Origin: Dictyostelium discoideum
Lineage: Eukaryota
Assembly: GCA_000004695.1 (NCBI GenBank)
Contig: CM000152.2
Span: 2,688,001 to 2,752,000, forward strand
Length of the DNA stretch: 64,000 bases
Direction: 5' to 3'
Below the pieces are notes generated by a model. That model ran no database searches. It saw only the letters and a list, made by a program, of their open reading frames with translations, and had not been told where the DNA came from. How positions within the stretch are numbered: the first letter of the stretch is position 1; each line of letters begins with the position of its first letter. Positions 12,535 through 57,514 of this stretch are shown here, in pieces. The translations under genes were made by a program, and so were the position numbers.

Positions 12535-12607
12535 TGCTCGATGCAGGGATCGAACCTGCGACCGTGGCGTTATTAGCACCACGCTCTGCCGACTGAGCTA
12601 ATCGAGC
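12535..12607 (-). tRNA. tRNA-Ile (anticodon AAU).
   Basis: Manual cloverleaf: GCTCGAT-TA-GCTC-AGTCGGCA-GAGC-G-TGGTG-CTAATAA-CGCCA-CGGTC-GCAGG-TTCGATC-CCTGC-ATCGAGC-A. A and B boxes present. T8 terminator on the gene strand (plus 12522-12529). Confidence 0.9.
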
Positions 12608-28560: not shown

Positions 28561-28600
28561 TTACACCCTAAAATTTTTAAAAATAATATTAATGAATAAC

Positions 28601-28661
<61 letters not shown>

Positions 28662-28884
28662 TAATAATAATAATTAGTAAATGAGCATGAACATGAAAAT
28701 GATCACTGTGTGTGTGTGTTGTGTGTTGAAAAATTGGGTAAATAATTATAGTACGCACAACGAAAGTTCTCCAATCTTGTTTTGCTCTGTAGAAAACCCA
28801 GAACCAAACAGTTGTACCTAAACCAACTGAAAGGAGTTTGTGTACTTTTGAAACGTGAAATGGTGCGTGATGACCTCCTGCCAT
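28561..28884 (-). CDS. Small hydrophobic ORF, NDUFB2 (AGGG subunit)-like. 3' end uncertain because the ORF runs into an ATT repeat.
   Basis: MAGGHHAPFHV...TVWFWVFYRAKQDW resembles AGGGVHIEP...MWFWILWRFWHD of complex I subunit B2. Confidence 0.35.
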
Positions 28885-29301
28885 TATTATTATTATATGT
28901 GAATATGTAAAATAAAAAAAAAAAAAAAAATTAAAAAAATTAAAAAAAAATCAAAATAATTTTTTTTATTTTTTTTTTATTTTTTTTTTTTTTTTGAAAA
29001 AAAAAATTAAAAAAATAATTATTATTTCTTATAACTTTTTATTTATATCATTAAAACTTTTATTTATTATTTGAATTCATAAGATTAAATAAATTTTCTA
29101 TTCTTTTTTTATTTTATATTTTTTTATATTAATTCCAAAAATAGATTAAGGTTTGAAATTATTTTTTTAAAAAAGCAAACAAAATAAAAAAATAAAGTTT
29201 TGCCAATTATCCAAAATGCAATTTACAAAAATTTAAAATCAATGTCATTTTAATAAATTAAAATTATAAAGTAAACAATCTTATTTGAACAATAATAAAC
29301 C

Positions 29302-29365
<64 letters not shown>

Positions 29366-29520
29366 CTTAAAACAGAACGATTACATTCATTTTTTTATAT
29401 TTTATACCATTTTGTGTATTTTTGAGTTCTCTATTTTTATATGTTATAAATTAATATTAAAAATAAATAATATTAAATCATTTTTTTAAAAATTTCAATC
29501 AAAAAGGGTTTTTAGGTATT

Positions 29521-29700
29521 TTGGATTTAATGTTCGCGAACCGCCAGAGATATGTTAGTTTGTGATATTTATCTTTTTGACAGATATCAGGATTTTTTTT
29601 TGCTTTGTGTCTCAATTATTCAATCGAGACACTCAACGGTTTTTTCGATGTTTTTACACACCTTCATATCTCTGGTGGTCGCTTACGATTAATCAATGAG
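29521..29700. other. Less AT-rich structured island. Candidate ncRNA or regulatory element.
   Basis: 10-nt palindrome gttcgcgaac. 11-bp inverted arms ccagagatatg/catatctctgg about 110 nt apart. Hairpins gtgtctc-12nt-gagacac and tgatat-15nt-atatca. T9 and T6 runs. Confidence 0.3.
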
Positions 29701-30241
29701 AACTTTTTGTTAGACGAAGAATGACAATTTCTTTTATGCATTTGTATCCAAAACCTATTTTACCTGTGATTAATTATATTTTAAAATTTAGTTTTGTAAC
29801 TTAATATTTTTAAAAAATAATCATTTAAGGGATTTTTTAAAAAAACAATGGTCTAAAATAAAAATAAAATTTTTTTTTTTTTTTTGAGAATTAAATTTTA
29901 AAAATTATTTCCATTATTTTTCTATATTTTTTTAACCCATTTTTTAATTCAATCCGATTATTTCCATAATATTTTATTAATATTTTTTTTTCCAAAAAAA
30001 CCTTTTTTAAACCTTTTGCATCTAAAATTTTTTTTTTTAGTTGATTCTACTCTTTTTTAAGACTTGAAAAAAAAAATGATATTTGAATTATAAGAGAAAT
30101 AATTACTTTACCTATTTTTTAAAATTTTTCTTTTTTATAATTTAATAAAAAAATAAAAAAAATTAAAATAAAAAAAAATAAAGAAAAGAAAATTTTAAGA
30201 TTTTATTATTTTTTATTTTTTAATTTTTAATTTTTAATTTT

Positions 30242-33164
30242 TTATTTTTTAATTTCATTAATTAACTTGGCGACCAAGGCAGTCCAACCAGTCTGGTGAG
30301 AAGCACCAAGACCAGCACCACTATCACCATGGAAATATTCATTGAACAATATATGATCTTTCCAATGTTTTTTTGCGAAAATTGGTTTACCACCAGCAAA
30401 TTTTCTAGTACCATCTTGATTCTCTTGGAAGATACTAATGAGACGTTTAGAGATATCATCGGCTACGATATCCAAAGTTACGAGGTTACCAGAGTTTGTT
30501 GGATATTCAATTTGGAATTCATCACCATAGTATTCATGATAGGTACGAAGTGATTGAATCATGAGATAATTTACGGCAAACCAAACTGGACCTCTCCAAT
30601 TACTATTTGAACCCATGATATGAACATCACTCTCGCCAGGTACATAACCAACACAAGCATCCATCTCAGCAAAAGTGAATGGATGATCCTTGTGATGTTT
30701 TGATAATGATCTAATACCATTTTCAGAGAGGAACCAATCTTCATCCAACATTTTCTTTAAGATTAATTCCAATTTCTCACGATTTACAATTGAGAGTAAA
30801 CGTGATTTATTTTGACCCAAAGCAGTGAATGGAGCAATGTTTTTCACTAAATTTGGTCTATACTTTACGAACCAATCCAAACGTTCTTTGAATTTTGGTA
30901 AAGCTTGAAGTGTATCATAATCCAAAATTTCAGCAGCAAACAATGGTATTAAACCAACGAATGAATAGACTTTGAGTTGATGTTGATGAGAACCTGGTGA
31001 AATGATTGAATCAAAGAAGAAACCATCCTCATTACTCCATAAACCAGTTTTTGAGGTGATACTCTTGGCAATGCTAATGAAATGTTCGAGGAATTTAGTG
31101 GCGATTGATTCATAAGAGTTTCTTTCACGTGCTAAAATCAAGGAGATTTTCAACATATTGGCACTATAGAATGCCATCCATGATGTACCATCGGCTTGTT
31201 GAAGTTTAGCACCATCTTTCAATGGTGTTGATCTATCGAATACACCAATATTATCAAGACCTAAGAAACCACCTTCAAAAATGTTATTACCTTTGATATC
31301 TTTTTTATTGACCCACCAAGTGAAATTTAATAAAAGTTTATGGAAAATTTGCTCCAAAAATTCGATATCTTTAACACCGGTTGTTTTCTCTATATGTTTA
31401 TAGACTTCCAAGGTTGCCCATGCATGTACTGGTGGATTTACATCACCAAAATCCCATTCATATGCGCAAAGTGCACCACTTGAATGAGAATACCATTCAC
31501 GAGTAATTAGAATCAATTGACGTTTTGTCCATTCAATATCTAATAACATCATTGGTATCATTTGAAAAGCTAAATCCCATGCAGCCAAGAATGGGAATTC
31601 CCATTTATCTGGCATTGAAATTACATCGTTTGCATAGAAATGATCCCAATGATTATTACGAGTAACTGGTTTCTCTCTTGGATGAGCTGGGTCACCTCTT
31701 GCCCACATATCAACACCAAAGTGATAATATTGTTTGGTCCATAGTAAACCTGCCAATGATTGTCTTTGAATACGTTTTAAATCTTCACTCATACCATCGA
31801 TACCACTTTGGTTGGCCTTGAAAACATTATCATAAAATTCATCGGCTTCTTGTTCTCTTTTAGTGAAAATTGAATCAAAGCTTGTAAATGCTTCTTGTTC
31901 TTGAAATTCTGTTGGTGAGAATCTAATCTTTACAGTATAAGATTCACCTGGACCCAATAATTTCTTACAATGAGCTGCAACTTTTGTACCACTTTTTTCA
32001 TTTACACAATCTTTCCAACCATTAACAACTGAATTATTAATACCATCTTTTACATATGGTGAACTATTTGGATAATTAAATAATCTTTGAGTATTTGTAT
32101 CGTTCTCTGTGAATAAATAATTAATATCTTCTTTTTTTCCTGTTGCTGCTGCTGCATCAGATGTTTCCACGATATAATATCTTTTACCAATATGAACTTC
32201 TTCACTAACCAATTGATTATGTGTATGACGATGAATATATGGACGACGATCTGAATAACCCCATGACCAAGTATTACGATACCAAAGATGTGGAAGTACA
32301 TGAATGGTTGCTTCTCTATCGGTTGAACGATTATGTACGGTAACTTTACATAAAATATCATCTTCTTGATCTCCTTTAGCATATTCAATGTAACAATCGA
32401 AATATTCATCCTTATCAAAGATACCAGTATCTTCAATTTCATACTCTGGATCTTGTTTACCACGTTGTGCATTGGTTGATACTAAATCACTATATGGATA
32501 TTCATTCATTGGATATTTATATAACATTTTGGCATAGGAATGTGTTGGTGTATTATCTAAATAGAAATAATGTTCTTTTACATCTTCACCATGATTTCCT
32601 TCTGGTCCACCAAGTCCAAAAAATCTCTCTTTAATAATTGGATCTTTTTCATTCCAAAATGCTAAACCTAAACAAATATTTTGAAATCTATTACAAAATC
32701 CACCAATACTATCCTCTGACCATCTATATGCACGTGATCTAGCATGATCTTAAAAAAAAAAATAAAATGAAAAAAAAAAAATTAAAAAAAAAAAAAATGA
32801 AAATAAAAATAATATTAATAATAAATTTTAAATATTAATTAATTATAAATCCGTGAAAAAAAAAAAAAAAATAATAATAATAAAAATAATAATAAAAATA
32901 AAAAAATTAAAATAATATTTACCGTGTGGAAAGTAGGTCCATGGTTCACCACCATAATCTTCACGAACAGTTGCCCATTGTCTATCACTTACATAGGTAC
33001 CCCTTTTTTTTTTTTATAAAAAAATAATAATAATAAATATAAATGTTTGTAAGTATAATTGAAAAAGTGAGAAAAAAAAAAAAAAAAATTAAAAAAAAAA
33101 AAACCTACCAATTCTTCCAATCAGAATTTCTTAATAATGAATCATCTAATCTTTTTTGTTCCAT
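30242..33164 (-). CDS. GH63-like (MGH1/mannosylglycerate-hydrolase-like) glycoside hydrolase, 3 exons: complement(join(30242..32749,32923..33002,33109..33164)). Apparent 1-nt frameshift near 32700.
   Basis: N-terminal [62 protein letters not shown], then [20 protein letters not shown]...[14 protein letters not shown]... plus a 761-aa ORF with (alpha/alpha)6-barrel GH motifs. Introns GTAGGT...AG and GTAAAT...AAG. Confidence 0.65.
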
Positions 33165-44777: not shown

Positions 44778-45199
44778 ATAATAATATTAATAATAATTAA
44801 TAATTGTAGTGATATATGGTAACATAAATTAAATTTTATTTTATTTTATAAAAAATTTTATTAAATTTTATTTTATTTTTTAAAATTTTATTATTTAATT
44901 TTTTATTTTTTTTTTTGCCATATTATTTTTGATAGTAAAATTTAAATTTCAACAGAATATCATTTTGCATGTGATTTTGGGTTTAAGATCGAGATTGTTA
45001 CTTGGATCACTAAAATAAGGGCCTTCATTTAAAGAAAAAAAAAAAAAAAAAAAAACTGGTCAATCTATATATATGTATTGTATAATTTCCTTAAAATAAC
45101 TCTCAATAATTATAATTCCACTCACTTGTGCAAAACCCACAAACCACACTCACCCACAAAAAAAAAAACCCCACCAACACTCAAAGCAATAAATTCACA

Positions 45200-45245
<46 letters not shown>

Positions 45246-45497
45246 GAAAATTACAAGCCAAACTACACCACATCAACATGTTGACGATTTTAAACTAATA
45301 GCATGCTTATATGAAAGAGCTGTGCGATAATTAGTTTAAATGAGTGTTCATTTAAAAAAAAAAAAAAAAAAATAATTTATGTATAAAATTAATAAAAGAT
45401 GTGGTTAAAAAAAAAATATATGGTAACGCAACATCACACCCAAATCAAAATTCAAATTTTGTTGTGTGCTGTGTGCATACTTTAAATATTTTTTTAT

Positions 45498-51607: not shown

Positions 51608-51772
51608 GGTAAGTGGAGGTGCGTAATACGCAACGACCACAGCTACCACAAATTGGTCAATTGAATTCTCGTAATTGAGAATCATACACAAACCAAACCG
51701 GTGTGCAATGGTCTGAAATTCATGCAATTAATATGCCTTTGTGATCACATATTAATATTGACAGGTAAGTAT
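51608..51772 (-). ncRNA. U1 spliceosomal snRNA.
   Basis: Gene-strand sequence ATACTTACCTG... (U1 5' end complementary to 5' splice sites). GATCACAAAGG (stem-loop I, U1-70K loop). CATTGCACACCGG (U1A loop). Sm site AATTTGTGG. Terminal stem-loop. 3' end approximate. Confidence 0.85.
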
Positions 51773-57399: not shown

Positions 57400-57473
57400 G
57401 TTCGGATGGTGTAGTCGGTTATCACGAATCCTTAACACGGATTAGGTCGTGGGTTCGATTCCCGCTCTGAATA
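57400..57473 (+). tRNA. tRNA-Val (anticodon AAC).
   Basis: GTTCGGA-TG-GTGT-AGTCGGTTA-TCAC-G-AATCC-TTAACAC-GGATT-AGGTC-GTGGG-TTCGATT-CCCGC-TCTGAAT-A. Very close to canonical eukaryotic tRNA-Val. T5 terminator at 57485-57489. Confidence 0.9.
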
Positions 57474-57514
57474 CAAACTAATACTTTTTCCAAAGACAAA
57501 TTTTCATAGTCAAA

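Follow-up and report, generated by a model that had tools for sequence, protein, structure and literature searches.

The mid-size non-coding RNAs (ncRNAs) catalogued in Dictyostelium come mainly from Rfam models, Class I RNAs and microRNAs, and the same holds for the D. firmibasis and D. giganteum genome papers. In the A+T-rich genome of Plasmodium falciparum, the RUF RNAs are GC-rich, structured RNAs of unknown function. The promoter element of Dictyostelium ncRNA genes, the DUSE, reads [AT]CCCA[CT/AT]AA (PMC3188802, PMC7919456) and lies ~60–63 nt upstream of the transcription start. Objects of the kind described here, ncRNA genes in GC-rich islands with a DUSE-type element upstream, are already known in Dictyostelium, and what would be new is an unclassified member with a variant box. 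The locus may already be listed, as predicted or verified, in the older Dictyostelium ncRNA literature; a full-text search with 14-mers of the element (as DNA and, for some, in RNA spelling), with older Dictyostelium ncRNA surveys lying outside its scope, returned only a chance match in an adenovirus paper.

We analyzed a 64,000-nucleotide stretch of D. discoideum DNA (hereafter the window), which contains a GC-richer island in an A+T-rich spacer. Our best explanation, to which we assign a probability of roughly 0.7, is that the island is an independent minus-strand gene for a structured ncRNA of ~255–270 nt, with a putative DUSE-type promoter, a T-run at its end and a role as a ribonucleoprotein (RNP) scaffold.

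A first-pass annotation had described a structured, GC-richer island at 29521–29700, and both attributes are borne out. The GC content is 0.29–0.37 at 29500–29750 and 0.04–0.18 on both sides (100-nt windows). Folding free energies of the 180-nt piece are –54.5 kcal/mol (z = –5.5) for the plus strand and –58 kcal/mol (z = –8.5) for the minus strand, neither of which was equaled by any of 200 dinucleotide shuffles. The 10-nt perfect palindrome GTTCGCGAAC (29532–29541) and the 11-bp inverted repeat CCAGAGATATG (29544–29554)/CATATCTCTGG (29665–29675) are present as described, and a repeat search extends the latter to 24 nt with 79% complementarity. The interval itself is too short, as the conserved structured unit spans 29502–29769 and its ends pair mutually: the whole 271-nt piece folds at –71 kcal/mol (z = –8.0), with 29746–29757 pairing with 29513–29526, partly beyond the original boundaries. 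The long inverted repeat encloses three local hairpins rather than two. Coordinates of the features are collected in Table 1.

Table 1. Features of the predicted RNA gene and its surroundings, in window coordinates.
Feature	Position	Strand	Description
Predicted RNA	29502–29769	–	Conserved block; ~255–268 nt; end within T-run
Promoter-like box AATCCCTTAAA	29824–29834	–	Core TCCCTTAA at 29832–29825
ATATA, possible TATA-like element	29775–29779	–	18–22 nt upstream of UAGG
Putative distal upstream motif TTAATTCTCAAA	29883–29894	–	7/7 genomes, amid unalignable spacer
T-run, putative Pol III terminator	29501–29505	–	Conservation ends here
Helix P1, 5' arm UAGGUUUUGGAU	29746–29757	–	Pairs with 29513–29526 (AUCCAAAAUACCUA)
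Helix P1, 3' arm AUCCAAAAUACCUA	29513–29526	–	Consensus fold
Hairpin P2	29720–29742	–	6 pairs; loop AUAAAAGAAAUU invariant
Single-stranded joiner CUUCGUCUAACAAAAAGUUCUCAUUGAUUAAUC	29687–29719	–	~33 nt, unpaired in consensus; scattered point changes
Long helix P3, 5' arm	29667–29686	–	Contains complement of CATATCTCTGG repeat
Long helix P3, 3' arm	29532–29552	–	Contains palindrome GTTCGCGAAC
Hairpin P4	29647–29662	–	Short, variable loop; pair 115/122 U-A, U·G or C-G
Hairpin P5	29602–29637	–	14 pairs, 98% of cells paired
Hairpin P6	29563–29589	–	10–11 pairs; pair 196/208 U-A, G·U or A-U, both sides change

Orthologous loci were reached through the 90%-identity cluster of the neighboring GH63 protein, whose members belong to D. 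discoideum strains, D. cf. discoideum, D. citrinum (two), D. dimigraforme and D. firmibasis. The comparison set comprises seven genomes from five named taxa of the D. discoideum complex, and the upstream box was scored in eight orthologous loci. The element lies downstream of GH63 in every D. discoideum-complex locus fetched and occupies the same site in the seven genomes, flanked by the GH63 gene DDB_G0279941 on one side and a small NDUFB-like gene on the other. In nhmmer searches of the orthologous loci, a single-sequence query gave E-values of 1e-50 to 1e-85 and a profile gave 1e-82 to 1e-91. We aligned the entire spacer from the GH63 stop to the next start codon and expressed identity relative to the window: in the four more distant genomes it is 0.86–0.94 across 29761–29522, except in one 40-nt bin that contains the variable P4 loop (0.69), and mostly 0.0–0.5 in the indel-rich flanking spacer. 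The island together with the upstream box (29503–29850) is base-for-base identical in GCA_054883475.1 (CM142509.1), where arithmetic from the locus coordinates places the RNA at ~2,800,091–2,800,358 on the minus strand of the record.

Conservation among relatives had been put forward as a check on the island, and it is found in D. firmibasis, D. citrinum and D. dimigraforme but not in two syntenic pieces of D. purpureum. In D. purpureum and P. violaceum, the element went undetected at the GH63 and inositol 5-phosphatase loci, whether sought with blastn or nhmmer, by scanning for the upstream box or with a covariance model trained on the seven sequences. The D. purpureum gene order breaks beside GH63, so the element may lie elsewhere in that species or be absent from it; its absence from the D. 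purpureum and P. violaceum pieces would fit either a young gene or one that has moved or diverged. Pattern scans of metagenomes with invariant motifs yielded no match other than one bacterial chance match. The element is present in one copy in the window, with no additional copies in the fetched loci or in ~66 kb of D. purpureum and P. violaceum DNA.

An RNAalifold consensus of the seven minus-strand sequences contains 67 pairs in six main helices. It supports a modeled architecture in which P1 closes the ends and is followed by the 5' hairpin P2, the joiner and the long helix P3, capped by P4–P6 with A-rich linkers. Canonical pairing is found in 98.1% of cells, against 33–44% when the 3' partners are slid by 1–3 columns, and four pairs undergo double-sided changes: 87/248 (U-A to G-C), 115/122, 147/169 and 196/208. 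The observed pairing and covariation scores were matched by 0 of 500 shuffles, a test that related sequences can pass without structure, and 43 of the 67 pairs are invariant across the seven closely related genomes. Single-sequence minimum free energy (MFE) folds recover between 52 and all 67 of the consensus pairs in every genome.

The evidence differs from helix to helix. All cells of the 12-pair P1 are paired, and one of its pairs shifts from A-U to G·U. The loop and most of the stem of P2 are identical in 7/7 genomes, and P2 is the least proven helix because it has no double covariation. The joiner retains the invariant blocks UCGUC, AAAAA and CAUUGAU. P3 comprises 17 pairs, and the palindrome GTTCGCGAAC, instead of forming its own hairpin, is part of its 3' arm; in D. 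dimigraforme and D. firmibasis, the neighboring pair 87/248 has covaried from U-A to G-C. The register of P4 is less certain since the alignment has indels there. In P5, 7 of the 14 pairs vary yet stay paired, nearly all through G·U pairs on the minus strand.

The terminal inverted repeats (29746–29757/29513–29526) and the stable folding of both strands are what a relic of a foldback or miniature inverted-repeat transposon would show. We find such an origin hard to credit: the element holds a fixed syntenic position under strong purifying selection in seven genomes, its interior is a multi-branch fold and not one long palindrome, and, with no second copy in the window, the fetched loci or the ~66 kb of D. 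purpureum and P. violaceum DNA, the element does not constitute a transposon family.

The first-pass annotation had implied a plus-strand RNA in which two hairpins end in T-runs, as Pol III terminators do. These T-runs follow two hairpins on the plus strand only and are internal A-runs, within A-rich linkers, on the minus strand, whose own T-run lies outside the interval first described. Comparison of the MFEs of the two strands is non-discriminating. Toggling between Watson–Crick and G·U occurs in 17 variable pairs on the minus strand and in 2 on the plus (binomial p = 7e-4); this count is biased and to some extent circular, the fold having been derived from the minus-strand sequences. The minus-strand G·U toggles correspond to Watson–Crick versus C·A mismatches on the plus strand. 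Cells that pair on one strand only number 41 for the minus and 2 for the plus strand. With the best consensus fold computed separately for each strand, canonical pairing is maintained at 17 of 24 variable pairs on the minus strand; the plus strand maintains it at 7 of 22 and loses P5. Including the pairs found only in the plus-strand fold, a hand count gives about 18 (minus) to 6 (plus). The RNA strand also shows a run asymmetry, with nine A-runs of at least four and one T4. Together, the substitution pattern favors the minus strand, less strongly once plus-only pairs are included.

An RNA transcribed from the plus strand, with hairpin-plus-T-run terminators, could appeal to plus-strand MFEs that are equal to or below the minus-strand MFEs and to the ~6 pairs that behave better on the plus strand. 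We regard this reading as very improbable, since (i) internal runs of T5 to T9 would halt Pol III early, (ii) that side has no conserved upstream box, identity at 29400–29500 being only 0.16–0.42, (iii) the plus strand cannot retain the 14-pair hairpin P5 in all genomes, and (iv) the G·U toggles stand at 17 to 2 for the minus strand. The minus strand is favored alike by the upstream box, the terminal T-run and the G·U substitutions, and the annotation is correct on substance while wrong on strand, extent and terminator assignment.

The box upstream of the predicted RNA has a core, TCCCTTAA, that differs from the DUSE by one mismatch located at the core of the element (CCCT versus CCCA). The box AATCCCTTAAA and the stretch ATCCCTTAAA are unchanged in 8/8 orthologous loci, and the box stands 74–76 nt upstream of the UAGG that opens P1 in every genome, despite a variable intervening spacer. 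The core TCCCTTAA occurs once in the 64-kb window, 63 nt from 29769 and 75 nt from the first base of P1. An in-window reference for this spacing is provided by the U1 snRNA gene (51612–51772, minus strand; 78 bits with Rfam), whose perfect DUSE ACCCATAA (51835–51828) lies exactly 63 nt upstream of the AUACUUACCUG start. The other perfect DUSE strings in the window are mostly in apparently coding sequence, with no evident RNA gene downstream. A C-rich patch at 45135–45159 (plus strand) contains two overlapping DUSE-like strings ACCCACAA, and a GC-richer stretch lies ~110 nt further on (~45260–45330).

The 5' end of the predicted RNA would fall between 29769, 63 nt from the box, and ~29757, where helix P1 starts. 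The 63-nt rule gives 29769, whereas ATATA (29779–29775) would suit a start closer to 29757; in D. firmibasis, the 12 nt preceding UAGG are unconserved. ATATA is kept in 6/7 genomes (ACATA in D. dimigraforme) amid variable neighbors, which is weak evidence in A+T-rich DNA. Further upstream, the 40-nt bin 29921–29882 reaches an identity of 0.81 against 0.2–0.5 in the neighboring bins, and the distal motif TTAATTCTCAAA, found at a variable spacing of 30–50 nt from the box, may represent either an additional promoter element or a signal of another kind.

At the other end, the T-run directly follows AAAAACC(C) in 7/7 genomes and ranges from T4 to >T20 (T5 in the window), after which alignability is lost. 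At least four T residues are found at the 3' end of the RNA-coding strand in all seven genomes, as in a Pol III unit, and one internal T4 occurs at RNA position 19, within P1. Given this internal T4 and a terminator of only T4 in one D. citrinum locus (L006), Pol III would have to pass one T4 and stop at another. The absence of T5 or longer runs from the RNA was dropped as evidence since its chance probability is 0.46.

The distance from the GH63 stop codon to the element ranges from 427 to 1925 nt across genomes, and that from the element to the ATG of the downstream NDUFB-like gene from 358 to 618 nt. Variable distances on both sides argue against a 3'-UTR element of GH63 and make a 5' leader of the downstream gene unlikely, though possible. 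A broader proposal is that the element acts in cis on the NDUFB-like gene, as a structured leader, a promoter-associated transcript or palindromic DNA sites for protein binding; it lies upstream of this gene and in the same orientation in all six genomes with a locatable gene start, and some short conserved patches occur between the two. Conservation nonetheless collapses right after the T-run and gives way to 358–618 nt of unalignable spacer with homopolymer tracts of 20–60 nt, the strand-specific G·U pattern favors RNA over DNA recognition, and the conserved box at a fixed distance upstream has the look of a separate promoter. We therefore judge a cis-acting element unlikely and retain the independent gene as the preferred reading.

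Several observations concern the neighborhood of the predicted gene. The first exon of the small NDUFB-like protein (28561–28884, minus strand) begins MAGGHHAPFHVSKVHKLL; the gene is uncalled in several new assemblies, yet its place beside the predicted RNA gene is conserved in six genomes. An A homopolymer tract of ~60 nt at 29303–29363 (plus strand) varies in length among D. discoideum assemblies. In D. citrinum, GH63 and the predicted RNA gene are separated by 1.5–1.9 kb of spacer, against ~0.45 kb elsewhere (L012, 6967–7456; L006, 6885–8396), and one D. citrinum strain has a called 105-aa gene within this spacer; the enlargement suggests a species-specific insertion. The right-hand neighbor, DDB_G0279941 (30242–32527, minus strand), encodes a GH63/MGH1-like hydrolase with full-length bacterial relatives, mostly from Chloroflexota/Anaerolineae, at 52–55% identity and a Physarum relative at 55%; its bacterial likeness may reflect an old gene transfer.

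A scan with Rfam models, which had been suggested as a check on the island, matched no family. The 4227 models of Rfam 15 gave zero matches at E-values up to 10 in 28900–30300, and the D. firmibasis and D. dimigraforme orthologues gave only noise (14–17 bits against thresholds of 41–90). As a control, the scan recovered U1 and two tRNAs in the same window; the tRNA genes are tRNA-Ile(AAU) at 12535–12607 (minus strand) and tRNA-Val(AAC) at 57400–57474 (plus strand). None of the snRNA, snoRNA, SRP, RNase P and MRP models matches the element. Conservation, covariation and the zero Rfam matches back the proposal of the first-pass annotation that the island holds a structured ncRNA outside the recognized classes.

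Other classes were considered individually. Class I RNAs are defined by a length of 42–65 nt, a stem formed by 5' GUUGA and its 3' complement, and the 11-nt motif CCUUACAGCAA; we rejected this class as no CTTACAG occurs within 240 nt downstream of the box and the predicted length is ~260 nt. RNase MRP or RNase P RNA was discarded because, besides the lack of an Rfam match, no CR-I/CR-V P4 pseudoknot is possible: the 3' arm of P3 runs directly into the 3' arm of P1, so that CR-V cannot be accommodated. The D. discoideum MRP RNA has already been described (PMC1796607). A protein-coding exon was likewise set aside, as the 46-aa open reading frame on the plus strand is broken in D. dimigraforme and D. 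firmibasis, indels measure 1–3 nt and no open reading frame is conserved.

Vault RNA is a panhandle-shaped Pol III RNA that is kept in vaults by the TROVE-domain protein TEP1. The terminal 5'/3' helix, variable central domain and 3' T-run of the predicted RNA fit this architecture, which raises a narrower identity for the same gene, that of a divergent Dictyostelium version of a widespread RNP RNA with vault RNA as the leading candidate. D. discoideum possesses the vault particle proteins MVPA/MVPB and vault PARP as well as a TEP1 orthologue (PMC13100048), and the vault literature, as far as we found, names no Dictyostelium vault RNA. In this species, the B box reads GTTCRANNC and the A box, TRRYNNARYNG, lies 30–60 bp upstream of it (PMC5391098). 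The D. dimigraforme and D. firmibasis versions of the palindrome region, GGTTCGCGACC/GGTTCGCTACC, differ from a B box by one base. In D. discoideum itself, however, GTTCGCGAA departs from the B-box motif at two positions and has no A box 30–60 bp upstream; the only A-box-like string, TAGGTTTTGGA, is ~215 nt off and fails the Y and A positions. The variable base in GTTCGCGAA is explained by structure, as it covaries with its helix partner. We accordingly rejected the palindrome as a B box, on the basis of the motif mismatches, the helix covariation and the lack of an A box at a usable distance, and with it a tRNA-type (type 2) Pol III gene, the motif showing two mismatches in D. discoideum and one each in D. 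dimigraforme and D. firmibasis.

The predicted RNA is in addition 2–3 times the length of known vault RNAs, and the Rfam Vault model gave zero matches at E-values up to 10. Vault RNA is the most attractive specific identity, but its length and promoter type misfit, and we consider it improbable, as we do a divergent version of a widespread RNP RNA in general. Scarcely less doubtful is the related idea that the predicted RNA is the RNA subunit of an ancient particle, plausibly a TEP1-bound vault RNA of the MVPA/MVPB vaults or alternatively a lineage-specific La/LARP7-type RNP, which would have diverged past the reach of covariance models and come under a DUSE-type promoter.

Telomerase RNAs of ciliates and plants have a similar size, a closing helix, a 5' hairpin followed by a conserved single strand and a Pol III-style end, all of which the predicted RNA resembles. 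Dictyostelium TERT exists and no RNA subunit is known for it (PMC6592521); this gap and the candidate telomeric repeats of D. firmibasis made it worth testing whether the same gene encodes the missing telomerase RNA, whose template would be a conserved single strand complementary to ~1.5 telomeric repeats. Template-sense matches to A-G(1-8) and to the D. firmibasis candidate repeats GAGGAGAGAGTCCCTTTTTTT and GGGGAGAGACA are no better than in shuffled sequence: the longest measure 5–8 nt, and 26–170 of 200 shuffles do equally well. The string CCCTTTTTTT, common to the element and one telomeric repeat, is in the wrong sense, and the joiner differs among close species, unlike an expected template. 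A telomerase RNA is on these grounds a most implausible identity.

We return to the independent minus-strand gene. From the sequence comparisons, we infer its transcription, its RNA ends and its polymerase. Transcription would be set up by the upstream DUSE-type promoter, that is, the box AATCCCTTAAA, perhaps with ATATA and the distal TTAATTCTC motif, and would be stopped by the T-run in the manner of RNA polymerase III. The product would be a stable RNA of ~255–270 nt whose ends are locked together by P1. Other panhandle-shaped Pol III RNAs that are single-copy and constrained in sequence provide the analogy for a proposed function in trans, as a stable ribonucleoprotein scaffold. Such a role is suggested by sequence constraint in excess of what base pairing needs, with loops, linkers and stems all nearly invariant; contact with protein or RNA could be made by the P2 loop, which is invariant, by the joiner and by the A-rich linkers. 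The predicted RNA reads best as an independent orphan RNP-scaffold RNA, probably Pol III-terminated.

With such a gene, the Dictyostelium ncRNA catalogue would gain a strongly constrained RNA of ~260 nt that is single-copy, belongs to no family and has a promoter-like box of its own; it would also be a candidate for an RNP RNA so far unreported in Dictyostelium. The variant box further suggests that promoter function is compatible with a CCCT core, in which case screens with the [AT]CCCA[AT]AA motif would miss such genes.

Compared with known systems, the predicted RNA shares with the Pol III-type telomerase RNAs of ciliates and plants its size, the layout of an upstream promoter and a T-run, the closing helix and the hairpin before a conserved single strand, and differs in having no template for the reported Dictyostelium telomeric repeats and no U-rich/A-rich pseudoknot that could be drawn. 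With vault and Y RNAs, panhandle-shaped Pol III transcripts that associate with TROVE-domain proteins, it has in common paired ends, a variable branched central domain, a 3' oligo-U and a single-copy gene; it is much longer and has no A/B-box internal promoter in D. discoideum, no Rfam match and no Ro-type bulged helix. Like the RUF RNAs, it was detected as a composition island, is structured, is conserved in close species and belongs to no family, a likeness in general description between unrelated lineages. Relative to Class I RNAs, it would be 4–5 times longer and without the motif CCUUACAGCAA, and has the downstream T-run reported for many Class I genes. Finally, its box reads TCCCTTAA instead of [AT]CCCA[CT/AT]AA, and the locus otherwise resembles the DUSE-driven ncRNA genes of Dictyostelium, which encode snRNAs and Class I/II RNAs (PMC3188802, PMC7919456), in being a GC-richer island within an A+T-rich spacer with a short C-rich box fixed 60–75 nt upstream, as is the case, at 63 nt, for the U1 gene in the same window.
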